A stretch of DNA of 32,000 nucleotides from Pseudodesulfovibrio mercurii (lineage in GTDB: Bacteria > Desulfobacterota > Desulfovibrionia > Desulfovibrionales > Desulfovibrionaceae), in assembly GCF_000189295.2 (NCBI RefSeq), contig NC_016803.1:1320001-1352000 (forward strand), written 5' to 3'. The position numbers and the translations under genes were made by a program. Below the pieces are notes generated by a model. That model had not been told where the DNA came from. It made no database searches and worked only from the letters and a program-made list of their open reading frames with translations. This document shows, piece after piece, positions 12,103 to 29,398 of this stretch. Positions within the stretch are counted from its first letter, which is position 1, and each line of letters begins with the position of its first letter.

Positions 12103-12111
12103 CTGTTCGGC

Positions 12112-12912: not shown

Positions 12913-12945
12913 GGCGACTACCTCATTCTTTGCCTGGGGCCTTGC

Positions 12946-14304
12946 CTAGCGGCCCATCTTCTTCAACATGACCAACACGGTCTTGAACATGATCCTGAAA
13001 TCGAACCACAGTGAATAATTTTTAATGTAATACAGATCATAACGCAATTTTTCAAAGGCGTCTTCAACAGATGCGCCGTAGGGATAGCAGACCTGGGCCC
13101 AGCCGGTGATGCCGGGCTTCACGAAATGACGCTCCGCATAGTACGGCACGATCTTCTTCAACTCCCGCACGAACTCGGGGCGCTCGGGCCGGGGGCCGAT
13201 CAGGCTCATGCTGCCCATGAGCACGTTGAACAGCTGCGGAATCTCGTCGATGCGGGACTTGCGGAGGAACTGGCCGAACCGGGTGATCCGGTTGTCGTTC
13301 TCCCGGGCCCAGACCGCGCCGGACTTCCGTTCGGCGTCCTGGCGCATGGAGCGGAACTTGTAGATGATGAACTCCTTGTCGCCCTTGCCCACGCGAATCT
13401 GCTTGAAGAGCACCGGGCCGGGGGAGTCCAGCTTGATGCCGATCATGACCAGGGGCAGGATGGGCGAGACGAGGATGATGCCGATCAGGGACAGGATCAC
13501 GTCCAGCACGCGCTTGCCGAAGCGGCGGATGCCGATGATCTTGAACCCCTTGGCGAAGATGAACCAGCTCGGGGTGATCTTCTCGAGCATCAGCTTCTGG
13601 TTGACCCGCTCGTAGAATTCCGGGGCCTCGAGGACCTCGATGCCGCTCAATTTGCAGTCCAGGATCTCCTGGAGCGGGAAAGCGGCCCTGCGCTCGGTCA
13701 GGGAAACCACGATCTTGCTCGCCTTGGCCCGCCGGGCGGCCTCGAGAATCCTGTTGGTGGGATGGTCCACCTGGGCCGCGGGATCGGCGAAATCACCGGA
13801 CCGGCATTCCACGTAGTCCTTGAACTCGTAACGCCCGCCCGACTGGGCGGCCAGAAGGCGCATGTCCTGGGCCAGCTGGCCGTTGCCCACGATGATCACC
13901 CGGTGCACCAACCCCGGAATTTTCCGCCAGTAGGAGGAAAACAGCAGCCACAGGGTATGGTTGAGGCCGAACAGGCACAACAGGACCAGGATCATCTCCT
14001 CAAGCCGCTTGAACAGATCGGTCTGCCAGTAGATGAAGAAGGTCATGTTCGAGGCCACGATCAGGCTGATGACCAGCCCCAGGGCCCCGGCATTGCGCGA
14101 CGGCGCCAGGTAGTGGACGATGATGTGCACGACCAGGAACGAAACCAGGATGACCCCGATCAGTACGGACACGTCCGCTGGACGTCCTTCGAACAGGGCG
14201 AGCATCTCGGTCGGTTCGTTGTACAGCATCACCGAGCACAGGAACAGCGCCAGGACCAGAAGCAGGAAGTCCTTGAAGACCCTGACTGATGCGATTGCTA
14301 CCAT
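12946..14304 (-). CDS. Undecaprenyl-phosphate hexose-1-phosphate transferase (WbaP/EpsB-type priming sugar transferase)
   Basis: 452 aa with N-terminal TM segments. C-terminal bacterial sugar-transferase domain PGPVLFKQIRVGKGDKEFIIYKFRSM ... RIDEIPQLFNVLMGSMSLIGPRPERPEF. RBS GGGAGGAAAG lies upstream of ATG 14304. Confidence 0.85.
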   Translation of the reverse strand: MVAIASVRVFKDFLLLVLALFLCSVMLYNEPTEMLALFEGRPADVSVLIGVILVSFLVVHIIVHYLAPSRNAGALGLVISLIVASNMTFFIYWQTDLFKRLEEMILVLLCLFGLNHTLWLLFSSYWRKIPGLVHRVIIVGNGQLAQDMRLLAAQSGGRYEFKDYVECRSGDFADPAAQVDHPTNRILEAARRAKASKIVVSLTERRAAFPLQEILDCKLSGIEVLEAPEFYERVNQKLMLEKITPSWFIFAKGFKIIGIRRFGKRVLDVILSLIGIILVSPILPLVMIGIKLDSPGPVLFKQIRVGKGDKEFIIYKFRSMRQDAERKSGAVWARENDNRITRFGQFLRKSRIDEIPQLFNVLMGSMSLIGPRPERPEFVRELKKIVPYYAERHFVKPGITGWAQVCYPYGASVEDAFEKLRYDLYYIKNYSLWFDFRIMFKTVLVMLKKMGR

Positions 14305-14331
14305 GTCTCTTTCCTCCCTCTCGTTCCCGAA

Positions 14332-16986
14332 CTATTCGCTCTTGATGGCGGCCAGCAGTTTCTTGGCCGCATCGGCATTGGCGCAGTTGGGACAATTCGC
14401 GACCTTCTCGAGCAAGGGCACGGCTTTATCATTCTTTCCGGACTGCTTGTAGGCATATCCGAGGTGGTATTCGATATCCGGGTTCTCCCCGGCGTTTTCC
14501 AGGGCCTTTTCCAGGACCTGCACGGCCTCGTCGTTGCGGCCGTTGACGGCCAGGGCGTAGCCGAAGGTATCCAGGACCGCGGGCTCGCCGGGCCGCTGCA
14601 TGTAGGCGGTATAGCTCAACCGCAGCGCCTCGAGCCGGGTCTTGGGATCCCTCAGATAGAGCATGGCCAGGTTGTTCAGGGCCGGGACATAACGCTGGGA
14701 CAGCTGGAGCGCCTTGTTGTAGCTGTCCACCGCCTCCTTGTCCTTGCCCAGCAACGTGTAGATGTTGCCGCGGATGGTCACGGCCATGTAGTTGTTCTCG
14801 TCGCGCTTGATGGCCGCGTCGATGTAGCTCAAGGCCTTCTTGGTCTCTCCGGAGGCGAGATAGACGTTGCCCAGCGCCACCAGGATGGACGAGTTGGAAT
14901 CGCAGAGTTTCTGTCCTTCTTCCAGGGTCGCCAACTGGTTGGCCTTGTCGCCCGCCCCGCCGTAGATATCGGCCAGGGTCAGGTACCCCAACGGCTGGTC
15001 GGGGTAGAATTCGATGATCTGCTTGGCCGAACCCACGGCCTTGTCGAAGTCGCCCTTGAGCATATAGGTCCGGGTGCGCAGGCCCAGGGCCGCGCTCCGG
15101 CTGTGCTCTTCCAACTCGTCGCAGAGTTGCAGCACGTCTTCGTACCGCTTCATGGACAGCAGGACCTGGGCCCGGAGACGCTCCAACGAGGCGTTGAAGG
15201 GCAGCTTGCCGCGTCCGTCATCGAGCACGGCCAGGGCCTGGTCCGGCTTGCCGCCGCGCACCAGGCTGCCGGCATAGCTGAGGTAGGCCTCGGGACTGTT
15301 GGTCTTGAGCGCTTCCTGGAAGCTCGCCTCCGCCTCATCCGGGCGATGCAGGAGTTGCAGCACCAGGGCCTTGCCCAGCCAGGCGCGGACGTAGTCGGGC
15401 TTGCGCTCGAGCAGGGCCGTGTATTCCGTGAGCGCGCCCTCGGGGTTCTTCTGGGCCAGGTGCAGGGCGGCGAGGGTTATGTACGGATCGGAATTATCCG
15501 GATTGCTCTCCTTGGCCTTGGTCAGATATTCCTTGGCCTTGTCGACGTTGTTGTCCGAGAGTTCCACCCGTCCGAGCAGGAAATAGAGCACGGAGTCCGT
15601 CTTGCTGCCGTTCAGGCCGCCTTCGAGGGTGGCCCGGGCCATGTCCTTCTCACCGTTCTTGATGTAGAAGGCGGACAGAATGATCATGGGCCGGATGGAA
15701 TCCGGCGAAGCGGTCACGGCGCGGGCCAGGTCGGTCTCGGCCTGCTTCATGTTGCCCATGGCATAGTTCAGCGCACCCATCTTGAGGTACGTCGCGCTGT
15801 CGTCGGGCCGGTTCTTGGTCACGGCCTCGTATTGCTCGATGGCCTCTTCGGTCTCGCCCTTCATGGTCAGGGCGTCGGCCAGGGTCATCCGGGCGGCGAC
15901 GTTGTCGGCGTCCTTTTCCAGGACCTTGCGGGCCTCGGCCATGGACTCGTCAACCCGGTGCTGCTGCAGGAGGATCATGGAGATCATCTCACGGGCCTTG
16001 AGATAGTCGTCGGCGCGGTCCGCGGCCACCCGGAGATGGCTGATGGCCGTTTCCAGATCGCCCACGGCGTAGTAGCTCAGGCCCAGGAAGAAATACGAAT
16101 CCGCGTCGGGCCGGATGGATATGGCCTTGTGGTAGGCGTTGATGGCCTCCTGGTAGTTCTTCTGCAAATACATGGACAAACCGACGGTCTTGTCGGCGTA
16201 CGGCATCTTGGGCGCCATGGACCGGAGTTCCTTGGCCAACTGGGCCGCGGTGTCGAACTTTTTCTCCTCCAGCATGGCCTGGGCCTTGATATACTTGGCG
16301 TAGGCGTCATGGGGATAGGCGTCGCTGATGGCGGTGAAGGTCTGCCGGTAGGCCTTCTTGTTCTTATCCTCCAGCTCGCGGCCGGCCTTGAAGTACAGGG
16401 CTTCGCGGTTGGTCGGGTCCTTGGCCAGGACCTCGGCGATGGCCTTGTCCGCGGCGTCCTTCCGGCCCCGGCTCTTGTAGACCTGGGCCAGGCCGATGCG
16501 CGCCTCGGTGTTCTCGGGGGCCAGCTGGAGCGCCTTGCTGAACCATTCCTCGGCCTGCACGTCATTGCCGCCCTCAAGCAGCAGGTGCCCGAAGAGCAGT
16601 GCGCCCTCCACGGATTCGGGGTAATCCTTGCAATACGCGGCCGCGTACTCCAGGGCCTTGGGCTTGTTCTGGGAAAGCCGCTCCAGACGGGCCAGGTCGT
16701 ACCCCAATTCCTTATCATACGGATTTTGCAGCTGGTACTTTTCGAAATTCTTGCGCGCCTGGTCCAGCTTGCCGGTGGCCAGGTACGACTTGGCCAGACC
16801 GAGCCGGGCCTTCAGTTCATTGGGGTGCTCATCGAGGATCGTCTTGTAGATGACGATGGCGCCGGAATAGTTGCCGTCGTTCCGGTACTGCTCGCCCTCT
16901 TCCAGCATATTGGCGACGTCGTTCTTCCCGCATGCGGCAAGAAGGACAATGATCATGGTCAGGTAGACAAAATTCTTCAGTTTCAC
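14332..16986 (-). CDS. prsT: TPR-repeat lipoprotein, PrsT-like (PEP-CTERM system)
   Basis: About 884 aa of tandem TPR repeats. Lipobox LLAACG follows a hydrophobic signal. I placed the start at GTG 16986, which is 4 nt after GGAGGA. The ORF-track TTG at 16998 lies inside that RBS. Confidence 0.8.
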   Translation of the reverse strand: MKLKNFVYLTMIIVLLAACGKNDVANMLEEGEQYRNDGNYSGAIVIYKTILDEHPNELKARLGLAKSYLATGKLDQARKNFEKYQLQNPYDKELGYDLARLERLSQNKPKALEYAAAYCKDYPESVEGALLFGHLLLEGGNDVQAEEWFSKALQLAPENTEARIGLAQVYKSRGRKDAADKAIAEVLAKDPTNREALYFKAGRELEDKNKKAYRQTFTAISDAYPHDAYAKYIKAQAMLEEKKFDTAAQLAKELRSMAPKMPYADKTVGLSMYLQKNYQEAINAYHKAISIRPDADSYFFLGLSYYAVGDLETAISHLRVAADRADDYLKAREMISMILLQQHRVDESMAEARKVLEKDADNVAARMTLADALTMKGETEEAIEQYEAVTKNRPDDSATYLKMGALNYAMGNMKQAETDLARAVTASPDSIRPMIILSAFYIKNGEKDMARATLEGGLNGSKTDSVLYFLLGRVELSDNNVDKAKEYLTKAKESNPDNSDPYITLAALHLAQKNPEGALTEYTALLERKPDYVRAWLGKALVLQLLHRPDEAEASFQEALKTNSPEAYLSYAGSLVRGGKPDQALAVLDDGRGKLPFNASLERLRAQVLLSMKRYEDVLQLCDELEEHSRSAALGLRTRTYMLKGDFDKAVGSAKQIIEFYPDQPLGYLTLADIYGGAGDKANQLATLEEGQKLCDSNSSILVALGNVYLASGETKKALSYIDAAIKRDENNYMAVTIRGNIYTLLGKDKEAVDSYNKALQLSQRYVPALNNLAMLYLRDPKTRLEALRLSYTAYMQRPGEPAVLDTFGYALAVNGRNDEAVQVLEKALENAGENPDIEYHLGYAYKQSGKNDKAVPLLEKVANCPNCANADAAKKLLAAIKSE

Positions 16987-17623
16987 GGCATCCTCCAAAT
17001 ATGATGCTCCGATTCCTCAGGCGGAGCCCACCATATAGCCAGAATCATGCCAGGAGGACTGTTCACAAAAAAATACATTAAAAACGAATGTTTAAGCTAG
17101 ATATATTCCTTATATTAAACGAAACGGACCCCCCTGAAGTCCGGTTTATCCGGACTTTCCGTTTTCCCCGAAAAATGATCCCGGAAGGCAATCAGCTTTC
17201 TAAAAAAAGACGAGAAAAATTCTAAAAAAAAGTCCCGATAGTTTTCCACAGATCATGACGTTTATTTCTGTATCGAACGGTCATTTCCAGCGAATTGATA
17301 TCGATGTCGATACATAAACCATTTTACCATTGATTTTATCAATGCACGCACCCTCAACCTGAACTTATGGCATTATTCATATATATATCGAATAGATATA
17401 TTATGAATAAGCGAGTTGTCCGCTTTTCCCGGATCAAAACGAGGGTCATTTCCGGACACAATGCATCGGGCAGGACTTGAGCGTGTCCGATCTCACCTCG
17501 ATTTGCGTTTTTTTGCACAAAAGTCGTGGACGATGAGCCTGTGGGGGCCATATCTTTCCGGTTGGCACCCCGGCGCGAAATTTGCTATTTGATATAGCCA
17601 TCAACGAGAACAATCGGACCACA
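16987..17623. promoter_or_regulatory. AT-rich divergent control region between the prsT operon and the ABC-exporter operon
   Basis: About 640 bp with no convincing ORF, visibly far more AT-rich than the flanks. It contains a sigma-54 promoter, phased A-tracts and several perfect palindromes (see findings). Confidence 0.6.
17037..17052 (-). promoter_or_regulatory. Sigma-54 (-24/-12) promoter candidate for the prsT operon
   Basis: Minus strand reads TGGCAT-GATTC-TGGCT, against the consensus TGGCAC-N5-TTGCW. The GG and GC dinucleotides have correct spacing. It lies about 50-65 nt upstream of the GTG start at 16986. Confidence 0.6.
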
Positions 17624-18754
17624 ATGATCGCCACCATCGCCTGCCAGAATCTTTTCCACGACAAGCTCCGTCTGGTCGTGACCCTGACCGGAATCGTCTT
17701 TTCCGTGGTCCTGATCACCATCCAGGTGGGCCTCTTCCTCGGGTTCACCACGACCATCTCGTCGGTCATCGACCACTCCGGGGCCGACGTCTGGGTGACC
17801 TCGCCGGGCGTCAAGAACTTCGACATCGCCCTGCCCCTCAAGGAGAGCAAGTATTACGATACGCTGTCCGCGCCGGGCGTGGCCCGGGCCGCCAAGTTCA
17901 TCACCCAGTTCGCCAATTGGAAAAAGCCGGACGGCGGCCAGGAGTCGATCCAGATCATCGGCTTCGAACCGGCCAAGGGCATGGGCGGCCCCTGGGGCAT
18001 GGTGGCCGGGTCCACCGACCTCCTGGACCTGCGCGACGGCATCATCCCGGACCAGCTCTACGTGGACAAGCTCGGCGTCCCCAGGCAGGGGGTGGTCGTG
18101 GAGATCAACGACAAGCGGGCCCGCGTGGTCGGGTTCACCCAGGGCATCCGGTCCTTCACCACCTCGCCCTTCGTGTTCGCCAATCTGGACACGGCCTGGA
18201 AGGTTTCGAGCCTGAAACCCGGCGAATTCACATACATTCTGGTGAAAGCGGACAAGGGCGTCTCCCCCGAGGCCCTGCGCGACTCCATCCGCCGACACGT
18301 GCAGGGCGTGGACGTCTACACCACCGGGGAGTTCAGCTGGAAGACCCAGCGGTACTGGATGTTCAACACCGGCGCTGGCACGGGCATCCTCATCGCCGCC
18401 TTCCTCGGCCTCGTTGTTGGCACGGTCATCGTGGCCCAGACCCTGTACGCCACCACCCTGGACCACATCGCGGAGTTCGCCACCCTCAAGGCCATGGGCG
18501 CGCCCAATTCCTACATATACGGCATCCTGCTCACCCAGGCGTCCCTGAGCGCCGTGCTCGGCTACGGGTTCGGCATCACCATCTCGATCATGGTCTCCCG
18601 GCTCAGCGATTTCACGGCAACGGCCATCGTCATCCCCCCCCTGCTGGGCGGGGGCATGTTCTTTCTTACCCTGTTCATGTGCGTCAGCTCTGCGGTGATC
18701 TCCATCCGCAAGGTCATGGCGCTCGACCCGATCCTGGTCTTCAAGGGGAGGTAG
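17624..18754 (+). CDS. ABC exporter permease, FtsX/MacB-DevC type
   Basis: N-terminal TM, a large periplasmic domain, and a C-terminal FtsX-like 3-TM bundle with LKAMGAPNSYIYGILLTQA. First ATG is at 17624; the ORF-track TTG at 17582 is less likely. Its stop lies 1 nt before the ATPase start. Confidence 0.8.
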   Translation: MIATIACQNLFHDKLRLVVTLTGIVFSVVLITIQVGLFLGFTTTISSVIDHSGADVWVTSPGVKNFDIALPLKESKYYDTLSAPGVARAAKFITQFANWKKPDGGQESIQIIGFEPAKGMGGPWGMVAGSTDLLDLRDGIIPDQLYVDKLGVPRQGVVVEINDKRARVVGFTQGIRSFTTSPFVFANLDTAWKVSSLKPGEFTYILVKADKGVSPEALRDSIRRHVQGVDVYTTGEFSWKTQRYWMFNTGAGTGILIAAFLGLVVGTVIVAQTLYATTLDHIAEFATLKAMGAPNSYIYGILLTQASLSAVLGYGFGITISIMVSRLSDFTATAIVIPPLLGGGMFFLTLFMCVSSAVISIRKVMALDPILVFKGR

Positions 18755-18755
18755 G

Positions 18756-19475
18756 ATGACGACGAAGACGGCCATCGAACTCCGGAGCATATCCAAGGCC
18801 TACGGCCCGGCGGGCAACCAGGAGTATGCCCTGCGCGACGCCACCCTGGACGTGGTCCGGGGAGAGGTGCTCATGCTCATGGGCCCGTCGGGCAGCGGCA
18901 AGACCACCCTCCTGTCCATCATGGGCTGCATCCTCAAGCCCACCTCGGGCTCCATCACCGTGGCGGGACACGACGTGTCCGGCCTGTCCGAGCGGGCCCT
19001 GGGGAGGATCCGGCTCGACAACCTCGGCTACATCTTTCAGGAATACAACCTGTTCCCGACCCTCAACGTCCTCGAAAATGTCATGGTCGCCCTGGACCTG
19101 CGGGGCTACACCCGCCGCCGGGCCAGGGAGACGGCCATGAAGACCCTGGCCGACGTGGGCCTGGACGACAAGGCCCAGGTCAAGCCCGGGACCATGAGCG
19201 GCGGGCAGAAACAGCGCCTGGCCATCGCCCGCGCCCTGGCCGGGTCGCCGCAGGTCATCCTGGCCGACGAACCCACGGCCGCCCTGGACTCGGTCAACGG
19301 CCAGCAGGTCATGGAGCTGATGCACTCCCTGGCCAAGCGGGGCGACCGCGCCGTGGTCGTGGTCACCCATGACCCCAGGACCGTGGATTTCGCCGACCGC
19401 ATCGTGACCATCGAGGACGGCCTGCTCCACCCACAGCCCCAGGACGGGGCAAAGGCTCCCGAGAGGAAACCATGA
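18756..19475 (+). CDS. ABC transporter ATP-binding protein (MacB/LolD/DevA-like)
   Basis: Walker A GPSGSGKTT, signature MSGGQKQRLAIARAL, Walker B ILADEPT. RBS AAGGGGAGG. Confidence 0.9.
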   Translation: MTTKTAIELRSISKAYGPAGNQEYALRDATLDVVRGEVLMLMGPSGSGKTTLLSIMGCILKPTSGSITVAGHDVSGLSERALGRIRLDNLGYIFQEYNLFPTLNVLENVMVALDLRGYTRRRARETAMKTLADVGLDDKAQVKPGTMSGGQKQRLAIARALAGSPQVILADEPTAALDSVNGQQVMELMHSLAKRGDRAVVVVTHDPRTVDFADRIVTIEDGLLHPQPQDGAKAPERKP

Positions 19476-20572
19476 GAATAGTACTCTTGCTCCTGGCGAT
19501 CACCATCGGCGCCGCGGTCTACGTGGTCCATGAATCGCCGCAGTGGCTTTCCGCCTCCCTGCCCGACGTCGGCAGCTCCACCGAAGACATGGCCGCGACC
19601 CCGCCGATCAGTAACCGCTCCCCGTGGGTGGCGGCCTACGGCCGAGTCGAACCGGCCACCGAGGAACGTGACCTGGCCTTCGAAATCAGCGGGGTGATCG
19701 AATCCGTGGTGGTCGAGGAGGACGAGCACATCACCAGGGGCCAGCCCCTGGCCTATCTCCGCGACGACCAGTACGTGGCCCATCTGGCCACGGCCAAGGC
19801 CAACGCCCAGGCCAAGAAGGCGTACTACGACAAGCTGGTGGCCGGGGCGCGCAAGGAGGAGAAGAGCGAGGCCCAGTCCGTGGTCCAGCGGACCAAGTCC
19901 GTGATGATCAACGCGAGAAACGAAATGAACCGGCGCATGGAACTCCTCGACAAGAAACTCATCGCCAAGGAGGAGGTGGACCGGGCGACCAAGGACTTTC
20001 TCGTGGCCGAAAAGCAGTACGAGGAGGCCGTCCAGCGCATGCTCATCACTGAAAACCAGTCGCGCAAGGAAGACATCCTCATGGCCTGGGCCGAGTACCA
20101 GGCCGCGGTGCAGGGCGCCATGGAGGCCGAGGCCCAGCTGGACCAGACAGTGCTCCGTTCACCCATCGACGGCATCGTCCTGCGGCGCCACCGGTTGCCG
20201 GGCGAACATGTGTCGGTCTTCGTGGAGACCCCGGTCATGACCGTGGCCGACGTCAGCAAGTTCAACGTCCGGGCCGAACTGGACAAGAAGTTCGTGACCC
20301 TGGTGCACGCGGGCCAGGACGCCTACTTCACCAGCGAAGCCTTCGGCGACGAGCGGATCAGGGGCAAGGTGCTGCGCAAGGCGGGCACCATGCAGCTGAC
20401 CGAGATTCCGCCCCGGACGCCCGGCGAAAAAGTGGACAAGACCGTGCTCGAGGTGATCATCGCGCTGGAGCCCAGGGAAGGCATGGTCACCGGTTTGACC
20501 GGCGACGTCTTCATCCAGACGGAAAAGACCGTTGGCTCCGAATTCAACTCCATCGTCAACGACAAGCCCTGA
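19472..20572 (+). CDS. HlyD/DevB-family periplasmic adaptor (membrane fusion protein)
   Basis: ATGA start/stop overlap with the ATPase gene. N-terminal TM MRIVLLLLAITIGAAVYVV. Coiled-coil middle region and lipoyl/beta-barrel motifs (RSPIDGIVL). Confidence 0.8.
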   Translation: MRIVLLLLAITIGAAVYVVHESPQWLSASLPDVGSSTEDMAATPPISNRSPWVAAYGRVEPATEERDLAFEISGVIESVVVEEDEHITRGQPLAYLRDDQYVAHLATAKANAQAKKAYYDKLVAGARKEEKSEAQSVVQRTKSVMINARNEMNRRMELLDKKLIAKEEVDRATKDFLVAEKQYEEAVQRMLITENQSRKEDILMAWAEYQAAVQGAMEAEAQLDQTVLRSPIDGIVLRRHRLPGEHVSVFVETPVMTVADVSKFNVRAELDKKFVTLVHAGQDAYFTSEAFGDERIRGKVLRKAGTMQLTEIPPRTPGEKVDKTVLEVIIALEPREGMVTGLTGDVFIQTEKTVGSEFNSIVNDKP

Positions 20573-20579
20573 GGTGCCC

Positions 20580-21248
20580 ATGACTCCCCTGCTTGCCCGC
20601 ATCCTGCCGTTCTGTCTGTACATGGCCTTTGTCGCCGTCCCGGAGATCGGGACACGGTCCGGGCTGTTCGAGGTTTCCGCCCACACGGCGGCCGCCCTCT
20701 ACCCGGTCAAGATCGGATTGGTCGGCCTGGCCCTGGTGCTGCTGTGGAAGCGCTACGACGAGTTGTCCTGGGCGGACCTTGGTCGCATGAAGGACACGAC
20801 CCTGAGCCTCGTGTTCGGCGCGGTGTTGTTCGTCCTTTGGATCAACCTCGACATGCCCTTTGCCGTGACCGGCGACCCCCAGGGCTTCGATCCGAGCGGG
20901 TTCGGCGGCCTGCGGCTGCCCATGATCGCGGTCCGTCTCTTCGGCGCGGCGATCATCGTGCCCATCATGGAGGAGCTGTTCTGGCGCTCCTTCCTGGCCC
21001 GCTACCTGGTGGACAAGAACTTCACGGCGGTGCGCCACGGCACCTTCACGGTCTTCACCTTCACGGCCACGGCCATCCTGTTCGGCCTTGAGCACAACCT
21101 GTGGCTGGCGGGCATCCTGGCCGGTGTGGCGTATAACTATATATACATGCGCACCGGCAGCGTCGTGCAGTGCATCCTGTCCCACGGGGTCACCAATCTC
21201 CTCCTCGGCGTCTACGTCATCGCCACGGGCCACTGGCTTTTCTGGTAA
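20580..21248 (+). CDS. CPBP-family (CAAX-protease-like) intramembrane glutamic endopeptidase, PEP-CTERM-associated type
   Basis: 222 aa polytopic protein. All three CPBP motifs are present: EELFWRSF (EExxxR), FGLEHNLW (FxxxH) and SHGVTN (HxxxN). ATG 20580 lies 7 nt after the adaptor stop, with GAGGTG as RBS. Confidence 0.75.
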   Translation: MTPLLARILPFCLYMAFVAVPEIGTRSGLFEVSAHTAAALYPVKIGLVGLALVLLWKRYDELSWADLGRMKDTTLSLVFGAVLFVLWINLDMPFAVTGDPQGFDPSGFGGLRLPMIAVRLFGAAIIVPIMEELFWRSFLARYLVDKNFTAVRHGTFTVFTFTATAILFGLEHNLWLAGILAGVAYNYIYMRTGSVVQCILSHGVTNLLLGVYVIATGHWLFW

Positions 21249-22415: not shown

Positions 22416-23159
22416 ATGAGCATCCCCCCGCGCAAGCTTGAAGAAGAAGTGATGATGGGCCGAGAGGAGGCCGCCGCCTACGACGGCCTGACCCGCAAAT
22501 TCCTCGACATCCTGCATGCCGGCTTCGTGGAGTCGGTGGTCAATCTCGCCCCGGCCCAGGGGCGTTTTCTCGATGTGGGCACGGGCACCGGCTGGATCGC
22601 CATCGGCGTGGCCCGACACTCGGGGGCACAGGTCACGGGCATCGACCTGTCGGACGACATGCTGGCCATCGCCCGCATGAACGCCGATAACGAGGGCGTG
22701 CGCAACGTGGAGTTCGTCAAGGGCAACGCCTCCCGTATCCCCTTTGACGACAACACCTTCGATGCGGTCTTCTGCCACAACATGCTCCACCACATTCCCG
22801 AGCCCGAGGGGCTGGTCCGGGAGATGCTGCGGGTGGCCAAACCCGAGGGGGCCGTGGTCATCCGGGACCTGAAGCGGCTGTCGAAATTCATGACAGCGCT
22901 ACACGTCAACCTGTTCGGACTGACCTACAACGAGCTGATGAAGAAGGAGTATCGGGATTCGATCATGGCCAGCCTGACCGAGGAGGAGATGCGGGACCTG
23001 GCCGACAGGGTGGGGCTGGGCCGCGAGACCTTCTCACGCGCCTTCGTCACCCACATGACCCTGGCCCGCCCGGCCGCGAACCGCAGGCCAGACCGGATCA
23101 CGGTGCCCGTGGCCCCGCACAAGAGCCTGGCCAAGAATTTCTACGTCTGCAAGGGCTAG
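22416..23159 (+). CDS. Class I SAM-dependent methyltransferase
   Basis: SAM-binding motif I FLDVGTGTGWIAIGVA. Downstream acidic and post-I motifs (GIDLSDDML, FDAVFCHNMLHH). ATG 22416 has a GGAG RBS. The ORF-track TTG at 22398 lies inside the terminator T-tract. Confidence 0.85.
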   Translation: MSIPPRKLEEEVMMGREEAAAYDGLTRKFLDILHAGFVESVVNLAPAQGRFLDVGTGTGWIAIGVARHSGAQVTGIDLSDDMLAIARMNADNEGVRNVEFVKGNASRIPFDDNTFDAVFCHNMLHHIPEPEGLVREMLRVAKPEGAVVIRDLKRLSKFMTALHVNLFGLTYNELMKKEYRDSIMASLTEEEMRDLADRVGLGRETFSRAFVTHMTLARPAANRRPDRITVPVAPHKSLAKNFYVCKG

Positions 23160-25189
23160 GCGTCGCCGCCCGGGAATGCGGTGAGCGGCTTCCGGTAGGT
23201 GCCGTACTTGATGCCCGGCCCGAAGCCCACCCGGAAGAAGAGCACCGGCCTGGACGCCAGGAATCCGGGGAAACATTCCTCGGCCAGAGACCAGGACCTG
23301 CCCAGCAGCTTGCCGTGGGCGGGCGAAAAGGACGTCTCCCCCTCCAACAGCCAGCGCAGCCGGAACAATGCCGGTGCGGCCGCAGGCTGGAACCGGATGC
23401 CGTAATGGGTGAAGGTCAGCCAGGCGCGCTCCAGCGCCCTGCCCGCCAGGAAGAGCGATTCCGTGTCCAGGGCCTGCGTGCTGATCAGTCCCACGCCTCC
23501 AGAACGAAGGATGCCCTTGCCCGAATGCGCGGCCACGCCACGTGAGGCGCCCAGGGTATTGAGGGCCTTCATGACCGACCAGGACCGGGTGGCCTTGAGG
23601 AACAGGTTGCCAGCGCGGCCCGCCTCAAGATTGCCGAGCGGGAACCCGTCCCGTGTCTCCTCGGCGTCCTTTTGCGTGAACCGGATCATGGCGTTCAAAT
23701 GCTCGTGGAGCCCGCGATGCTCCGTGCGGATGCGGTCCGCCAGGCACACGGATTCGGCGAACTTCTTCAATTGATCCTGGGCTGATATCCACTGCAGTGT
23801 GGTGCCGGGAAACCGCTCCACAGCCTCGCGGATGTGTTCCCAAACGCCGTCCGAGACCGGCTTCCGGCTGTAGAACTTGCGGTTGGTGCAACGCAGCCAG
23901 ACGGCGTCGTGCAGAACCGGTTCGTGGACGTCCTCCCCCTGTTTCAGGGTGAGAGCGGCCAAACGGATTTCCCCCGCCCCCTCTTCGGGACGCAGTTCCA
24001 CCTCGGGCTTGAGGCCGCAGGCCTGGGCGGCCAGGGTCATGTTCTCCATGGCCGCACCGCAGGCCACGATGGATGCGGCCTGCCGAACGTTGAAAAAGCT
24101 CTCGTCAGTGCCCTTGTCCAGGGACAGGACGATGCGTTCGCCCTTGCCCGAGAACCGCCACGGCTGGCAGTTGTCGCCCGACGGGGCCTGGACGCCCGCG
24201 CTGATGACGTAGTCGCGCACTGCGGCCAGACCGTCGGCGGCCAGATCCGGCTGCTCGGGCCTGACCGGACCGATGACCTTGTTCCTATCCAGCATGTAAT
24301 TCTTGGCGATCCACAACTTCAACCGTTGGACCGGATGCCGGTTGCCCATACGCAGCCGTCCCTTGACCAGCTTGCGGACATAGGGGTCGAATTGCAGGAA
24401 ATAGGGAACCGGCTTCACGCCCTTGCGGCCGAGCAGCAGACGCAGGGCCTCGGTCACGGCCAGGGACGCGCACAACTGGCAGGCGCAGCCCAGGGACGGC
24501 CCGCGCTTGGCCCGAAGATCCACGAAGTCCATGTTGACGTACCCGAAATGGGTGGGACGCGGGGCCAGGCCCATGGCGAACTTGAGGATGCGCTCGATGT
24601 ACGTGTCCTCTTCGCGGATGTCGAAATATTCGTCGAACCCCATGCCGTCGGGCGTGAACACCAGCAGGGCCGAACTGAAACCCATGGGCCCGGCGGTGAT
24701 CACCGGGATGCCCTTTTCCAGGGCCTTCTTGAAGACCATCCGGCGCACTTCGAAGACGAAGAAGTCCAACCCGTCCAGGACCAGGTCCGCCCCGTCCAGG
24801 AAGGCGTCCACGTTTTCCTCGGTCACCCCGTCCTCGAAGAGCGTGAGCGACAGGTGCGGATTGACCTCCAGGGCGTTCTCCGCCATGACGCGGAGTTTCT
24901 CCCGGCCGAAGGCCGAGACCGTGGCTCCGTACTGGCGGTTGCCGTTGACCGGATCAAAACGGTCGAAGTCGGCCAGCCGGAAGCCGCCCACGCCGCTGCG
25001 GGCCAGGGCGATCAGGTGTCCGCCCCCCACGCCGCCCAGACCGGCCACGGCCACCACGGCGTGCTGCAGCCGATTCTGCTCATTGGCGTCGAGCAGACCG
25101 AGATTTCGGCAAAAGGCCGCTTCCTGATACGTATTGTGGGAGGCGACGTGGAACACGTCGAGTTTCTGCCGGGTTTCCGGAGTATTCAA
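23156..25189 (-). CDS. Fusion protein: N-terminal ThiF/MoeB E1-like adenylyltransferase domain plus C-terminal nitroreductase-fold (FMN) region; architecture resembles M. tuberculosis Rv1355c
   Basis: 677 aa. Rossmann GxGxxG in VAVAGLGGVGGGHL with E1-like downstream sequence. After about residue 340, nitroreductase-like segments appear (AGVQAPSGDNCQPWRF ... WLRCTNRKFYSRKP). TTG start at 25189 is preceded by AAGGA. The domain call is by eye. Confidence 0.65.
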   Translation of the reverse strand: MNTPETRQKLDVFHVASHNTYQEAAFCRNLGLLDANEQNRLQHAVVAVAGLGGVGGGHLIALARSGVGGFRLADFDRFDPVNGNRQYGATVSAFGREKLRVMAENALEVNPHLSLTLFEDGVTEENVDAFLDGADLVLDGLDFFVFEVRRMVFKKALEKGIPVITAGPMGFSSALLVFTPDGMGFDEYFDIREEDTYIERILKFAMGLAPRPTHFGYVNMDFVDLRAKRGPSLGCACQLCASLAVTEALRLLLGRKGVKPVPYFLQFDPYVRKLVKGRLRMGNRHPVQRLKLWIAKNYMLDRNKVIGPVRPEQPDLAADGLAAVRDYVISAGVQAPSGDNCQPWRFSGKGERIVLSLDKGTDESFFNVRQAASIVACGAAMENMTLAAQACGLKPEVELRPEEGAGEIRLAALTLKQGEDVHEPVLHDAVWLRCTNRKFYSRKPVSDGVWEHIREAVERFPGTTLQWISAQDQLKKFAESVCLADRIRTEHRGLHEHLNAMIRFTQKDAEETRDGFPLGNLEAGRAGNLFLKATRSWSVMKALNTLGASRGVAAHSGKGILRSGGVGLISTQALDTESLFLAGRALERAWLTFTHYGIRFQPAAAPALFRLRWLLEGETSFSPAHGKLLGRSWSLAEECFPGFLASRPVLFFRVGFGPGIKYGTYRKPLTAFPGGDA

Positions 25190-25222
25190 GACAACGTCCT
25201 TTTCGAGCGGACAAGGTTAATG

Positions 25223-26116
25223 CTACATCAGGCCCTGTGCAAAAAATGCGTCGTGGTACATGAGCTGGAACCGATTACGTTGCTCCTTGGTCAGGCAGTC
25301 CAGAATTTCCGGACGCTTCTCCAGGAAGTAACACAGATTCTCCGGGCTCAGCGGCTTCTTTCTCTCCACGGGGTACAGGATGTGCGGGTCCATGATGGAG
25401 TTGTTGACCTTGGTGAAAAAGCTGTGCAGGTCCGTGTCGAAGTCCGACTTGCCATAGGCCTCGATCATGGCGTCGTCATAATCGCGGAACGAAATCCGCA
25501 AGGCCACCGCCGGGGCGCCCACGCCCTTGTACCAGCGCTCCTCCCCGAAGTCCTCGAACAGGAAGATTTCCTTGTAGAAACGGACGTGTTTGGGATTGAC
25601 CATGATGCACATGTCGTCCACGCCGGTCAGGTGCCCGTAGTTGAACATGGCCTTGGACAGATAGACGACCAGGTTGGACCACCGCCGCCGCCTGGGGGTG
25701 GCCAGCGCACCGAGCTCCGCGATCTTTCTCCCCTGCCCGCGCAGAACGTCCAGTTCCTTCTTGTACAGCGCGTCCATGGGCAGGCCGAAAGTCTCACTGT
25801 CGGCGTAATAGGACATGGTCGATATGACCTTCAGATATTCCTTGAAAATGAAGGCGCACGTGGTGGGAAGCAGGCTGTGCACGCTGAAGGACATCTCCGA
25901 GGGGTGGTCCTCGACGATGTACTTGGTTGAACGATAGACCGAATAGACCGTCCGGAAGGCCTGTTCGAGTTCATCCCGGGTTTCGGCGATCTTTATGCTT
26001 GGTTTTTCAAGCCCTTCCAGCTTGCTGTCCACAAGGGAAGACCGCCGGATACGTAAGGTCCTTCGACGTTCCACTCCGTTCTGCAAATCTACGCTGACCT
26101 TTCCTTTGCTTGACAT
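25223..26116 (-). CDS. GNAT-fold N-acyl amino acid synthase-like protein (FeeM / exosortase-associated acyltransferase type)
   Basis: 297 aa. The core IKIAETRDELEQAFRTVYSVYRSTKYI ... KIAELGALAT resembles FeeM/autoinducer-synthase-like N-acyltransferases. RBS GAAAGG. The gene starts 34 nt downstream of the PilZ gene stop. Assignment is from memory of the family, not from a search. Confidence 0.5.
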   Translation of the reverse strand: MSSKGKVSVDLQNGVERRRTLRIRRSSLVDSKLEGLEKPSIKIAETRDELEQAFRTVYSVYRSTKYIVEDHPSEMSFSVHSLLPTTCAFIFKEYLKVISTMSYYADSETFGLPMDALYKKELDVLRGQGRKIAELGALATPRRRRWSNLVVYLSKAMFNYGHLTGVDDMCIMVNPKHVRFYKEIFLFEDFGEERWYKGVGAPAVALRISFRDYDDAMIEAYGKSDFDTDLHSFFTKVNNSIMDPHILYPVERKKPLSPENLCYFLEKRPEILDCLTKEQRNRFQLMYHDAFFAQGLM

Positions 26117-26150
26117 CGCCTTTCATATTGCACAGGCAGGCACTCTCTGT

Positions 26151-26663
26151 CTATGCAATGTAGTGCTGTAACATGATATCCATCATGGAACGGGTCTCGG
26201 CGTTATTCCCTTCGAACACACCGACCAGGGTCAAGTCCCGATCGACCTTGTGACGAAGTCGCTTGCAATAGAACGACACGGTCTGCGATAATTCAGGAAT
26301 GGTGAAGAACACCTCGAAAAAGGATGAATTCGCCAAACGCTCTCCCATATCCGGAGAAACATCCTTGAACGATATCCGCAACCCTCCCTCGGAGACGTCA
26401 TCCACCATCACGGGGTAACTGCGCATCTCCCTGTCGGAAAACTTTACGCAAGATATCGCGGGAATTGACACATCCACCCTGGGATACTTCCGTCTGTCCT
26501 TTCCGTTCGCAGTCCAATCTCTGCTCATGAAGTCCCTCAGGCACCCCTCCACGATACCTGAAACAAACTGGGAACAATCCACCCCTTCTCCCCGTGCCAT
26601 GCGCTTGAGTGCCTGAAAACTCTCCTGATTCATGTCAAAACACACTTTCACCACTTCAGACAT
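26151..26663 (-). CDS. PilZ-domain protein (predicted c-di-GMP receptor) with a ~80-aa N-terminal domain of unknown function
   Basis: Canonical PilZ motifs RRKYPR (RRxxxR) and DDVSEGG (DxSxxG), about 30 residues apart. First ATG is at 26663. The ORF-track start at 26729 is a TTG without an RBS. Confidence 0.7.
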   Translation of the reverse strand: MSEVVKVCFDMNQESFQALKRMARGEGVDCSQFVSGIVEGCLRDFMSRDWTANGKDRRKYPRVDVSIPAISCVKFSDREMRSYPVMVDDVSEGGLRISFKDVSPDMGERLANSSFFEVFFTIPELSQTVSFYCKRLRHKVDRDLTLVGVFEGNNAETRSMMDIMLQHYIA

Positions 26664-27029
26664 CTTTTCAACTACCTTGAATCTAGCTTGCAGTGTGTGG
26701 GACGGTTCCCCCCGGTGTCCCCTTTCCAATGCCGCAACAATTCTCGATTTTTTGCAATAAATATACCGCAGCCGTCACTTGAAGCGGTCCGGGCGCAACA
26801 TGCCCCGGCCGTTTGCGGGAGACGGGCTCGCCCCGACTCGGCCCGATGGGAAATTGTCGAATCATACGGGAGAGCTATACAACGTTCCCGGGTCTCACGG
26901 CGGAAAAATAAATTCGGGTTCGTGGCGCCGCGGCAACAGGTCTGATCCGCGCACGCGCCGGACGGCCACGGCAAATTGTCTGGTAATCCGACAAGAAGCG
27001 AAAACCAGGTCCTGCAACGCAACAGGAAA

Positions 27030-27049
27030 CGCCGCCGAATCCGGCGGCG
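27030..27049 (-). terminator. Possible intrinsic terminator or structured element downstream of the second PilZ gene
   Basis: Minus strand reads CGCCGCCG-GATT-CGGCGGCG, an 8-bp GC stem, followed by TTTCCTGTT. The U-tract is imperfect. Confidence 0.3.
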
Positions 27050-27154
27050 CAGTTTGCGGGAAAGATTGAAAAACGGAGAGTGAGTGTCCGTCATGCCGTC
27101 TGTCGTGTCGGGCAACCGACACACGTCCCGGACGGACAAACGGGCGGGCAGCGC

Positions 27155-27583
27155 CTACATGAGGAAGCGCTGGATGCGGGCCTTGTCATCGGATTCATCC
27201 GAGACCTCGACCCCGACTTCCACGGGCTCATCCAGGACGATACGCCGAGGCAGACATTCCAGGGTGACCATGGCGTCGTCCAGCATGAAGGTCACGCTCA
27301 ACCCTTCGATCTGCTGGAGCATGCCGGCAAAAACGTGGCCTTTATCCATGAATTCCAAGAGCATACCCTGTATGGAAATGTTCCGGATCTGCACGGAAAA
27401 GACCATGATCTCACCACTGGTCTTGAGCACCTGGACGAGCCCGGAGAGCATGACGGGCCAGCGCGGCGACGTCCGCCGCTCCAGGTCGCCCGGCCCGGCC
27501 GGAGCCGCTTCGCCGGTTTCACCCGCCTCGAGTCGGTTGAGAATCCTGCCGAGCGCCTCGCCATCCTTCACGGCGACATGCAT
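27155..27583 (-). CDS. Small single-domain PilZ protein (predicted c-di-GMP receptor)
   Basis: RRTSPR (RRxxxR) and RNISIQG (NxSxxG) motifs. I chose the start at ATG 27583 (MHVAVKDGE) because the sigma-54 promoter at 27622-27637 overlaps or abuts the two upstream in-frame ATGs. Confidence 0.65.
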   Translation of the reverse strand: MHVAVKDGEALGRILNRLEAGETGEAAPAGPGDLERRTSPRWPVMLSGLVQVLKTSGEIMVFSVQIRNISIQGMLLEFMDKGHVFAGMLQQIEGLSVTFMLDDAMVTLECLPRRIVLDEPVEVGVEVSDESDDKARIQRFLM

Positions 27584-27686: not shown

Positions 27687-29123
27687 TCAGTTGTTTTTCA
27701 GCGAGAGGTTGTGCTTGCTCAGCAACTCGTACAGACGGGCCCGGGAAAGGCCGGAAAGCTTGCAGGCCGTGGCGATGGAGGCATCGCTCAACTGGACCAG
27801 CCGCTGGAGATAGACCTGCTCCATGGCCTCCACGGCTTCCTGCCGGGCGGCCTTCATGACCGGGAACTCCTCGGCGGTCATGGGCAGGGAATACATACTC
27901 GGCGTGGGAGCGGATTCCTGGGGCGCGGCCTCGTCCTCGCCCATGTCCTGAAACACGCGGCGCATGCGCAACTGCTGCGGAAGATGGTAGATGTTCAGGA
28001 ACTTGGAGAAACGCGCCTTTTGGAGCGAGACATGGAGGACGTTGACCAGCTCGCGCACGTTGCCGGGCCAGTCGTAGAGCCGCAGGGTCTCGATGAACTG
28101 GGGGTCCACCTCCTTCTCATCCATGCCGTTTTCCTTGCACAGGATGGGAAGATAATGCCGGGTCAGCATCTCGATGTCACCGTTGCGGTCGCGCAGGGGC
28201 GGCAGTTCGATGATGAAGCTCTGGAGCCGGTAATAGAGATCCCTGCGGAATTCACCGCGGGCCACCATCTCCTCAAGGTTCCGGTTGGTGGCCGCCACCA
28301 GCCTGAAATCACTGTATACTTCCTTGCTCGAACTGAGGGGGCGGAAGGTCTTTTCCTGGAGGACACGGAGCAGGGACTTCTGGATGCCCAGGTCGAGGTC
28401 GCCGATTTCGTCCAGGAACAGGGTGCCGCCGTGGGCCAGGTGGAACAGCCCCTTGCGGTCCTGGTCAGCCCCGGTGAACGACCCCTTGGCATGCCCGAAC
28501 AGCAGGCTCTCGGCCAGGGTCGAGGGGAGGTTGGTGCAGTCCACCACGATATAGCGGTTGTCCTTGCGGTCGCTGTTGTTGTGCAGCGCCCTGGCGAAAA
28601 GTTCCTTGCCCGTCCCGGTCTCGCCGGTGATGAGCACGTTGCCCACGCCCTTGGCGGAGATGGCCAACCGTTCGAGGCACTGGTTCAGGGCCGGGCTGTC
28701 GCCGATGATCTCCTCGCGGGTCAGGGTGTCGGTCTCTTCCCGCTCCACGGTCTTCTGTTGCAGGAGATTCTGGATGACCTTGCGGAAGCGATCTTCCTTG
28801 ATGGGCTTGACCAGGTAGTCCTTGACCCCGGCGGCAAAGGCCTGGGAGATGCAGTCGGAATCGGATTCCCCGGTGAGCATGACGATGTCCACGTTGGGGT
28901 CCAGTTCGGTCAGACGGGGGATGTGGCTCAACCCGCTGCCCTCGTGCAGATTGAGGTCCAGGAAGATGATGTCGAAATGGCTACTCTTAAGCAGGGTGAG
29001 GCCTTCTATCCCGGAATAGACGCAGTGGCAGTCGTAGCCCATCTTCTTGATGATGGACTCGACGACGGCGCACTGGAACGGATCGTCATCGATCAGCAGT
29101 ATCTTTCCCACGGAAGGTTCCAC
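27687..29123 (-). CDS. Sigma-54-dependent response regulator (NtrC family enhancer-binding protein), orphan with no adjacent kinase
   Basis: Receiver domain (KILLIDDDPF ... IIFLDLNL ... YLVKP). AAA+ domain with GETGTGKE and GSFTGA. C-terminal HTH (ACKLSGLSRARLYELLSKH). Start set at GTG 29123, 7 nt after AAGGAG. The ORF-track start at 29180 is TTG without an RBS. Confidence 0.85.
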   Translation of the reverse strand: MEPSVGKILLIDDDPFQCAVVESIIKKMGYDCHCVYSGIEGLTLLKSSHFDIIFLDLNLHEGSGLSHIPRLTELDPNVDIVMLTGESDSDCISQAFAAGVKDYLVKPIKEDRFRKVIQNLLQQKTVEREETDTLTREEIIGDSPALNQCLERLAISAKGVGNVLITGETGTGKELFARALHNNSDRKDNRYIVVDCTNLPSTLAESLLFGHAKGSFTGADQDRKGLFHLAHGGTLFLDEIGDLDLGIQKSLLRVLQEKTFRPLSSSKEVYSDFRLVAATNRNLEEMVARGEFRRDLYYRLQSFIIELPPLRDRNGDIEMLTRHYLPILCKENGMDEKEVDPQFIETLRLYDWPGNVRELVNVLHVSLQKARFSKFLNIYHLPQQLRMRRVFQDMGEDEAAPQESAPTPSMYSLPMTAEEFPVMKAARQEAVEAMEQVYLQRLVQLSDASIATACKLSGLSRARLYELLSKHNLSLKNN

Positions 29124-29398
29124 GTAACAGCTCCTTGCCCGCTCGCGGACAGGTCGGCTTGACGGCCGGACGATGGACAAAAGTTGGCCATTCTATACAT
29201 AGGCGCATTTTTTCTGTCCATAGGAAAATCTCCCGTTTCCGTTTTTTCCGGACAGACTGCGACCGTGCGAGAATATCCTTTCGGATACCCACACTTTCAC
29301 TATATCCCCCTTTTCCGATTTTTCAAGACATTCCGGATTTATTCGCAAGCCCTTTCCGGTGCGGCGGGCCGGGCGCCGGGACCATATGCAGGAACACG

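Follow-up and report, generated by a model that had tools for sequence, protein, structure and literature searches.

The present analysis indicates that a three-gene unit of Pseudodesulfovibrio mercurii probably encodes a pathway of the OxzAB/TrzAS type, in which a FeeM-like enzyme is paired with a fusion of a ThiF-like domain and a flavin mononucleotide (FMN)-dependent oxidase, within a regulon linked to sigma-54 and to cyclic di-GMP (c-di-GMP). The unit lies in a window of 32,000 nucleotides (nt), positions 1,320,001 to 1,352,000 of contig NC_016803.1 (assembly GCF_000189295.2), the whole of which was analysed and whose own numbering is used here (Table 1). This window is a canonical XrtA/PEP-CTERM exopolysaccharide (EPS) locus with two PEP-CTERM proteins. 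Three minus-strand genes encode, in order, a PilZ protein (PilZ1, gene 1), a FeeM-type N-acyl amino acid synthase (NAS, gene 2) and the ThiF/FMN-oxidase fusion (gene 3, hereafter ThiF/NTR, NTR standing for nitroreductase). Their coordinates and their spacers of 34 nt (26117-26150) and 33 nt (25190-25222) agreed between the list of open reading frames (ORFs) and a preliminary description of this DNA, whose domain calls (PilZ, FeeM-type, E1-like plus nitroreductase-fold) proved correct by Pfam, NCBIfam and Foldseek matches. The same description had assigned each gene its own ribosome-binding site, which holds for gene 3, with a good AAAGGA 7 nt 5' of its TTG, but not for gene 2, where GAAAGG lies merely 2 nt 5' of the ATG, nor for PilZ1, where a weak AAGG lies about 12 nt 5' of the ATG. 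The longest ORF of PilZ1 spans 26151..26729, and the ATG at 26663 was chosen, which gives 170 amino acids (aa) as in the gene calls on a Logan contig and in relatives. GC content at third codon positions was 0.64 in PilZ1 and 0.79 in gene 2, all neighbouring genes being higher, at 0.83-0.92 (about 0.87).

The OxzAB/TrzAS-type assignment was made because gene 3 matched the Rv1355c-family, Acg-type and PRK14851 models, because its predicted structure matched entries 1ZFN and 2YMV, and because its ATP- and FMN-site motifs were invariant. Its ThiF domain was recognised by Pfam (PF00899, E 2.6e-42, residues 27-273), and its C-terminal half by the Acg-type FMN oxidoreductase model NF047509 (3e-41, residues 328-607), the Pfam Nitroreductase match falling below its cut-off. 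Both domains were covered by the Rv1355c-family model NF005901 (1.2e-77), and the best model of all was NF011424 (PRK14851, labelled 'hypothetical protein', 2.9e-255). The AlphaFold2 (AF2) model of gene 3, with a mean predicted local distance difference test (pLDDT) of 83.7 and a predicted TM-score (pTM) of 0.63, gave Acg (2YMV, TM 0.75, top) and Escherichia coli ThiF (1ZFN, TM 0.82) as its two best PDB matches in Foldseek. In the ThiF domain, G50-G56 (read as GLGGVGG from the translation), D74, R85-Q86, K98 and D139 were invariant across 14 homologues; the nucleotide-binding motifs aligned with those of TcdA and ThiF, and D139 with its counterpart in MoeB/TcdA. Our guess is that this D139 may be the equivalent of D217 in TrzS. 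The FMN-site motifs APSGDNCQPW and RCTNRKF were likewise invariant in the homologues, and alignment to Acg (2YMV) kept APS..N.QPW and R.T.R. The ATP- and FMN-binding residues, whose presence the preliminary description had singled out for checking, were indeed found intact.

Gene 2 was recognised by the FeeM family model (PF21926, E 3.5e-42, 144.3 bits vs a gathering score of 27) and matched the FeeM structure 2G0B (E 2e-11), so that the FeeM-type nature proposed earlier for this 297-aa protein was borne out. At its C-terminus, about 90 aa form a conserved extension. It also matched positions 6-282 of NF011425 (PRK14852, a model of a 989-aa fusion, E 1.2e-88); this unnamed model spans gene 2 at 6-282 and gene 3 at 298-797, which means that their fusion in nature is already represented by a model. 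Membership of the PEP-CTERM-associated family TIGR03694 (cut-off 111.95 bits), to which gene 2 had been linked at first, was ruled out, no match being obtained at E<=0.01; it is the partner genes of alpha- and gammaproteobacterial loci that exceed this cut-off, with 199-237 bits in loci L034, L035, L039 and L040.

These loci belong to a set of 80, designated by L numbers, which was obtained by a one-genome-per-species scan and covers Desulfobacterota and alpha-, beta- and gammaproteobacteria. Homologues of gene 3 number in the hundreds; among those with a named source, the closest (56-62 % identity) belong to Pseudodesulfovibrio, Desulfovibrio, Salidesulfovibrio and Maridesulfovibrio, and the best match overall (92 %) lies on JGI metagenome contigs (L082-84). 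The same-strand order PilZ1-FeeM-ThiF/NTR was found again in these contigs, in D. oxyclinae (L089), in Maridesulfovibrio (L002) and in P. cashew (L085), with ThiF/NTR proteins 92, 57, 56 and 50 % identical, respectively, to that of the window. Because this arrangement recurs in relatives it is not due to chance: the trio is a real, conserved operon, and the question raised at the outset, whether its homologues are syntenic or scattered in related genomes, was answered in favour of synteny in these relatives. Genes 2 and 3 are moreover linked, because they occur as single polypeptides (L017, L020, L027) and because the gene directly upstream of ThiF/NTR was FeeM-type in 44 of 65 cases (the window gene and 64 locus sequences). 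The single polypeptides are FeeM+ThiF+Nitroreductase fusions of 985-1050 aa and of PRK14852 type, in metagenome-assembled genomes (MAGs) of Desulfovibrio and Oleidesulfovibrio. Among the 65 upstream genes, 26 matched TIGR03694 at E<=0.001, and 15, including that of the window, were of the PRK14852 N-terminal type. ThiF and NTR were encoded by separate genes in about 16 loci.

The chemistry put forward in the preliminary description (an N-acyl amino acid is made, its carboxylate adenylated, and the product cyclised or oxidised) has been demonstrated in homologous systems. Its remarks that the function of the Rv1355c family is unknown and that no described pathway combines these components are out of date. 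Indeed, in Pseudoalteromonas rubra and further proteobacteria, OxzA, an N-acyltransferase, is paired with OxzB, a ThiF-nitroreductase di-domain protein; heterologous expression and in vitro reconstitution established that the pair produces N-acyl tyrazolones and phenazolones, which are oxazolones (de Rond, Asay and Moore, 2020/2021; 10.1101/2020.06.11.147165). The same chemistry was described for TyzACB of Mycobacterium tuberculosis, and FDO-A plus ThiF proteins were predicted broadly to make acyl-oxazolones (Grigg et al., 2023; PMC10404671). TrzA and TrzS (Rv1356c and Rv1355c) of M. tuberculosis make N-acyl tryptazolones; TrzS performs ATP-dependent cyclisation and then O2-dependent desaturation, its D217A substitution abolishes cyclisation, and it was analysed against 1ZFN and 2YMV as structural references, with a poorly defined linker in its models (Kleetz et al., 2025; PMC12856293). 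Oxazolones do not survive acid or methanol (PMC12856293). Gene 3 was tied to OxzB and TrzS through the NCBIfam Rv1355c-family model and through the overlap of our loci with Table S1 of de Rond et al. (Roseomonas nepalensis, 647 aa; Halioglobus sp.; Emcibacter; Nitrosospira; an alphaproteobacterial MAG, 671 aa). Judged by homology, it is a Desulfobacterota branch of the published OxzB family, about 33-38 % identical to those members, and a homologue in a separate subfamily of OxzB/TrzS-type proteins.

The steps and the product proposed for this locus are transposed from these homologues. The FeeM-like enzyme would N-acylate an amino acid with acyl-CoA or acyl-ACP as donor; the ThiF domain would then adenylate the free carboxylate with ATP, whereupon the amide oxygen would close the ring to a 5(4H)-oxazolone; the FMN domain would desaturate the C-alpha/C-beta bond, and the product would be an N-acyl oxazolone (azlactone) or the N-acyl dehydro-amino acid formed from it by hydrolysis; finally, methylation by the adjacent methyltransferase and export through the neighbouring MacB-type pump would be possible. 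It could be asked whether ThiF/NTR acts instead on the C-terminus of a peptide or protein, in the manner of E1, MccB or TOMM enzymes. Before OxzB, the characterised ThiF-family substrates were all macromolecules (10.1101/2020.06.11.147165), and PEP-CTERM proteins are encoded nearby. However, the NAS gene is fused or adjacent, the homology is to the small-molecule enzymes OxzB and TrzS, and the 33- and 34-nt gaps leave no space for a precursor-peptide gene, so that we regard a macromolecular substrate as extremely unlikely.

Expression of the trio is probably driven by a sigma-54 promoter within the local PEP-CTERM regulon. The -24/-12 element CGGTATATTTATTGCA upstream of PilZ1 was identical in L082, whose ThiF/NTR is 92 % identical, though the remaining intergenic region has diverged. 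Equivalent elements were found 81-123 nt upstream of PilZ1 orthologues, with two mismatches in L085, L086, L088 and L089 and three in L087, and this phylogenetic footprint extends across six lineages. Other sigma-54 promoters precede PilZ2 (TGGCGCGAATTTTGCT), the two PEP-CTERM genes (TGGCACACCACTTGCT and TGGCATACTTTATGCT) and the PrsT gene (Table 1). The TGGCACACCACTTGCT promoter falls within the longest ORF of its gene, and the signal peptide (MKRLSAIIMT...) begins at 21405. The adjacent response regulator, which is kept upstream of the PilZ genes in relatives, probably activates the local sigma-54 promoters. The regulon driven by this regulator would comprise the three-gene operon, the PEP-CTERM proteins, PrsT and PilZ2, and the operon would be tied to c-di-GMP via the two PilZ proteins, with GGDEF cyclases alongside in relatives. 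As to a sigma-70 promoter for the trio, the sole consensus match lay on the opposite strand within PilZ1, and shuffled sequences also gave one. A riboswitch for c-di-GMP or another ligand in the conserved 5' untranslated region was also considered and rejected, since Rfam gave no match at gathering score in the whole window and none at E<=1 in 26100-27700, and since the fold was no better than that of shuffles (z -0.95).

PilZ1 itself has the features of a c-di-GMP receptor. It matched Pfam PF07238 with 32.3 bits (cut-off 22.5), and the textbook motifs reported earlier, RRKYPR (within DRRKYPRVD, R58-x3-R62) and DDVSEGG (D89-x-S91-x-x-G94), are intact, R58, R62, D89, S91 and G94 being invariant among 16 homologues. 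Its AF2 model (pLDDT 80) had the PilZ domains of BcsA, YcgR, Alg44 and MrkH as top Foldseek matches, and its fold matched c-di-GMP-bound PilZ structures; with the whole protein as query, the matches were dominated by the PilZ barrel. Ahead of this barrel, residues 1-47 form a ribbon-helix-helix (RHH)-like strand and two helices. The family is small (20 clusters), and its named sources are all Pseudodesulfovibrio. In L082-85, L087 and L089, PilZ2 likewise follows the sigma-54 regulator. In four relatives, one or two genes for GGDEF diguanylate cyclases (CBS-PAS-GGDEF) stand just 5' of PilZ1 on the opposite strand, with a PilZ2-like gene on their far side in L085 and L089; at the equivalent site, the window has merely a 490-nt intergenic region. 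The genomic context, with a pair of canonical PilZ genes in the window and GGDEF genes alongside in four relatives, gives good support to c-di-GMP control of the locus.

How this control would reach the enzymes can be considered in two ways. In line with the gating proposed in the preliminary description, PilZ1 could be a direct, c-di-GMP-dependent allosteric gate on the FeeM-like or ThiF/NTR enzyme, i.e., a post-translational switch. PilZ1 indeed lies 34 nt upstream of the FeeM gene on one probable transcript, the three-gene unit recurs in the relatives listed above, and a divergent 215-aa PilZ gene stands just upstream of the triple fusion in L017 and L027. A ligand-sensing domain attached to the enzyme has a precedent in Desulfobacterales and Desulfatitalea, where a cyclic-nucleotide (cNMP)-binding domain is joined to the C-terminus of the FeeM-type synthase encoded upstream of ThiF/NTR. 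By contrast, L087 has the sigma-54 regulator, PilZ2 and PilZ1 (74 % identical) without FeeM or ThiF/NTR alongside; a PEP-CTERM gene and an RTX-like gene part PilZ1 from FeeM in P. profundus (L088) and in L086; the alpha-, beta- and gammaproteobacterial loci of the set showed no PilZ gene close to the enzymes; and the RHH-like N-terminus suits DNA binding better than enzyme docking. PilZ1 thus belongs to the c-di-GMP/sigma-54 regulatory module and follows that module rather than the enzymes. Its most likely role is to regulate the local matrix programme in response to c-di-GMP, perhaps by binding DNA through its RHH-like N-terminus, and a dedicated allosteric valve is less likely: direct gating is possible but not indicated, and we consider it unlikely. 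Elsewhere in the set, L013 and L018 have a 102-aa PilZ gene about 2.5 kb downstream.

Several observations weigh against a regulated OxzAB/TrzAS-type pathway as proposed here. Gene 3 scores under the curated cut-offs of its models (261.9 bits vs 476 for NF005901, 848.5 vs 1170 for NF011424), and such scores, together with about 33-38 % identity to the published OxzB-family proteins, mean that substrate or product could differ. O2 is required by those oxidase domains that have been characterised (PMC12856293; PMC10404671, as cited in PMC12479983), while the closest named relatives of gene 3 belong to sulfate reducers (Pseudodesulfovibrio, Desulfovibrio, Maridesulfovibrio). Because these hosts are anaerobes, the desaturation step may be conditional on O2 exposure, use another acceptor or not occur. 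On the regulatory side, the CGGTATATTTATTGCA element has three mismatches to the consensus and is by itself non-significant. The RHH assignment is weak (RHH_4, E 0.1 for PilZ1; RHH_7, E 0.01 for the L002 orthologue), and c-di-GMP binding, DNA binding and enzyme contact by PilZ1 are predictions only.

The relation of the pathway to the exosortase system was evaluated in loci of at least 15 kb (n=50), by counting strong XrtA markers within 10 kb. Such markers were present in 25 of the 50 OxzB-family loci. Tetratricopeptide-repeat neighbours matched PrsT (TIGR02917) in 30 of 30 cases, and sugar transferases matched TIGR03013 in 14 of 14. Because XrtA markers were not seen in the Desulfobacterales loci, the association is frequent, not obligatory. 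In two loci (L034:6254-11986 and L035:6322-12016), we observed the order oxzA (TIGR03694, about 235 bits), prsT (TIGR02917), oxzB, followed by a TIGR03013 glycosyltransferase gene, prsK and prsR. The 671-aa entry for an alphaproteobacterial MAG in de Rond Table S1 corresponds to L034; L035 comes from an Emcibacter sp., whose relative Emcibacter nanhaiensis is in the same table. The oxzA-prsT-oxzB order explains the marks 'F 2 genes back' which that table gives for both entries.

The lipid might accordingly work in exosortase sorting, either as an N-acyl amino acid serving as the nucleophile or anchor to which cleaved PEP-CTERM proteins are transferred, or as an amine-reactive oxazolone acylating sorted proteins or EPS. 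This would accommodate the markers in half of the long loci, the interposed prsT gene and the 26 partner NAS genes matching TIGR03694; a link between NAS genes and exosortase loci has been published (Craig, Cherry and Brady, 2011, as cited by later papers) and was also noted for Stieleria (PMC12479983; PMC7293339), and oxazolones are, by established chemistry, activated acyl donors. The association is nevertheless merely positional, OxzAB, TrzAS and TyzACB were characterised without reference to exosortase, the Desulfobacterales loci lack the markers, and protein or EPS adducts are not mentioned in the oxazolone papers searched. A direct role of the lipid in sorting is therefore very unlikely in our opinion. 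In a broader form, N-acyl oxazolone synthesis would be built into the XrtA/PEP-CTERM matrix system as a regulated module rather than standing alone as a natural-product route, OxzAB being co-induced with PEP-CTERM proteins by sigma-54 and c-di-GMP. Sorted proteins or EPS would then be lipidated or capped by the amine-reactive azlactone or by the N-acyl amino acid, or the compound would serve as a chemical cue for the Prs system. We hold this to be quite unlikely; if true, a desaturation requiring O2 in anaerobic hosts could tie matrix production to oxygen exposure.

The genes flanking the trio bear on the final form of the product. A methyltransferase gene is convergent with the ThiF/NTR gene, their ends overlapping by 4 nt, and its orthologues (E 1e-70 to 1e-100) adjoin ThiF/NTR in L002, L005, L008 and L010, in varying orientations. 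A methylated product is plausible, because this gene recurs next to ThiF/NTR in Desulfobacterota and because it parallels the Stieleria clusters, where NAS, methyltransferase, ThiF and nitroreductase genes stand with PEP-CTERM and EPS genes (Kallscheuer, 2020; Commun Chem, 2025; PMC12479983; PMC7293339). The MacB-type exporter and protease block adjoins the enzyme genes in L006, L017, L027, L082, L086, L088 and L089, and is conserved there in most Desulfovibrionaceae relatives; it may export the lipid product. The relevant product could then be the hydrolysed, possibly methylated N-acyl dehydro-amino acid (of stieleriacine or thalassotalic-acid type), exported through MacB and acting as a surfactant or biofilm-modulating signal. 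Stieleria clusters indeed yield methylated N-acyl dehydrotyrosines, the oxazolone being unseen there (PMC12479983; PMC7293339), and oxazolones hydrolyse in water within hours (10.1101/2020.06.11.147165), while both the methyltransferase and the ABC/HlyD/FtsX exporter are conserved alongside. However, the methyltransferase lies here on the opposite strand, with a strong terminator-like hairpin just upstream, it is not beside the genes in L085, L086, L088 and L089, and the exporter might just as well work for the PEP-CTERM or EPS system. As the end product that matters, we consider this compound somewhat unlikely.

Table 1. Features of the window and, where an L number is given, of related loci. 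Coordinates without an L number refer to the window.
Feature	Coordinates	Strand	Details
PilZ1 (gene 1), candidate c-di-GMP receptor	26151..26663	-	170 aa from ATG at 26663
FeeM-type N-acyl amino acid synthase, OxzA/TrzA-like (gene 2)	25223..26116	-	297 aa
ThiF-like adenylating cyclase and Acg-type FMN oxidase fusion, OxzB/TrzS-like (gene 3)	23156..25189	-	677 aa, TTG start
ThiF domain of gene 3	24371..25111	-	residues 27-273; GxGxxG G50-G56, D74/D76, N84-R85-Q86, K98, D139/D142
Flavin-dependent oxidase domain of gene 3	23180..24208	-	residues about 328-670; FMN-site motifs APSGDNCQPW, RCTNRKF
Sigma-54-type -24/-12 element, probable promoter of the trio	26753..26768	-	CGGTATATTTATTGCA; about 90 nt upstream of PilZ1 ATG
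PilZ2 sigma-54 promoter	27622-27637	-	TGGCGCGAATTTTGCT; 1 mismatch
PEP-CTERM gene sigma-54 promoter	21349-21364	+	TGGCACACCACTTGCT; 0 mismatches
Second PEP-CTERM gene sigma-54 promoter	30263-30278	-	TGGCATACTTTATGCT; 2 mismatches, directly upstream
PrsT sigma-54 promoter	17037-17052	-	2 mismatches
Sigma-54-dependent response regulator (receiver and AAA+)	27687..29180	-	Sigma54_activat 2.8e-63, Response_reg 8.9e-24
PilZ2, second small PilZ protein	27155..27583	-	Pfam PilZ 22.8 bits; RRTSPR, NISIQG
Terminator-like hairpin 3' of PilZ2	27029..27050	-	9-bp stem, 8 GC pairs, T-rich tail; sets PilZ2 apart from PilZ1 unit
SAM-dependent methyltransferase, candidate tailoring enzyme	22416..23159	+	Methyltransf_11, E 1.4e-29
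Strong terminator-like hairpin	22370-22394		after PEP-CTERM gene, just upstream of methyltransferase
MacB-type exporter (FtsX permease/MacB_PCD, ABC ATPase, HlyD adaptor) and CPBP/Rce1-like protease	17582..21248	+	Pfam
PEP-CTERM protein gene	21327-22340 (longest ORF)	+	probable start ATG 21405; PF07589, E 3.5e-8
Second PEP-CTERM protein gene	29457-30260	-	267 aa
Core XrtA/PEP-CTERM EPS locus	1962..16998	-	NCBIfam matches over cut-off
Triple-fusion genes	L017:9068-12022; L020:8936-12025; L027:9071-12220		FeeM+ThiF+Nitroreductase
FeeM-cNMP-binding fusions	L012-L015, L019, L028, L032 (e.g. L013:8686-9969, L015:4305-5462)		weak Crp-type helix-turn-helix match in one
GGDEF genes beside PilZ1	L085:5397-7800; L086:5007-7394; L088:603-3217; L089:4739-6382	opposite to PilZ1	

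The core EPS locus encodes PrsR, PrsK, EpsI, an exosortase, an outer-membrane protein (TIGR03016), an ATPase (TIGR03015), a tyrosine kinase (TIGR03018), a chain-length determinant (TIGR03007), an exporter, a glycosyltransferase (TIGR03013) and PrsT (TIGR02917), all six of these models, as well as TIGR02915, TIGR02916, TIGR02914 and TIGR02602, being matched over cut-off. The exosortase (6043-7008, minus strand) is marginal on the XrtA-specific model (206.5 vs a cut-off of 208); its scores on the XrtW and XrtD models are a little better, though under their cut-offs, and EpsI is encoded by a separate gene. A 403-aa ORF (17585-18796, minus strand) has no family match and is antisense to the FtsX gene, and is thus probably no real gene.

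The locus joins two questions, namely what bacterial oxazolones and N-acyl dehydro-amino acids do biologically, which is unknown according to those who characterised them, and what chemistry follows exosortase cleavage. The enzymology is already known in kind, having been demonstrated for OxzAB and TrzAS between 2020 and 2025; the lineage is new, and the exosortase, sigma-54 and c-di-GMP context is partly new. This work adds the physical embedding of the published OxzB family, and of this Desulfovibrionaceae branch, in XrtA/PEP-CTERM loci, the regulatory context of the genes in this lineage (a conserved sigma-54 promoter with PilZ and GGDEF neighbours), and the presence of pathway genes in anaerobes, which raises the question of the oxidant of the flavin domain. 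In a text search that did not cover Craig et al. (2011), the terms 'exosortase' and 'PEP-CTERM' were absent from the oxazolone papers found, including those on OxzAB, TyzACB and TrzAS, and the sole paper found with both 'exosortase' and 'ThiF' was unrelated. Within that same scope, again excluding Craig et al. (2011), we found no report of OxzB-family genes, the published ones included, within XrtA loci, of c-di-GMP and sigma-54 control in this lineage, or of anaerobic hosts despite the O2 requirement of the characterised oxidases.

Compared with known systems, the window shares with OxzA/OxzB a two-gene unit in which an N-acyltransferase gene lies directly upstream of that for a ThiF-nitroreductase protein of about 650-700 aa. 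It differs in its host, a member of the Desulfobacterota where the published set comprises alpha-, beta- and gammaproteobacteria only, in its NAS of PRK14852 N-terminal type with the C-terminal extension of about 90 aa, and in the PilZ gene that leads the operon. TrzA/TrzS offers the same fusion architecture, the Rv1355c-family model match, the structural relatives 1ZFN and 2YMV and the conserved ThiF aspartate (D139); the window protein, in contrast, scores under the family cut-off, its host lineage is anaerobic where TrzS depends on O2, and it stands in an exosortase/EPS rather than a mycobacterial context. With TyzACB, it would share the acyltransferase, ThiF-like cyclase and FDO-A desaturase activities, which are predicted here by homology, whereas the Tyz ThiF and FDO are separate proteins and those of the window are fused. 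Like the TIGR03694 acyltransferases (Haft), the NAS of the window has a FeeM fold and lies within an XrtA/PEP-CTERM locus, but it lacks a match to that family. PilZ1 resembles BcsA, Alg44 and MrkH, PilZ effectors of matrix production, by its fold, both binding motifs and its EPS/biofilm locus, and differs from them in being small, in standing alone and in its RHH-like N-terminus. The stieleriacine-type clusters of Stieleria come from Planctomycetes, have separate ThiF and nitroreductase genes and several NAS paralogues, and no PilZ or sigma-54 module was reported for them; they are, nonetheless, the closest published parallel to the neighbourhood of the window as a whole.

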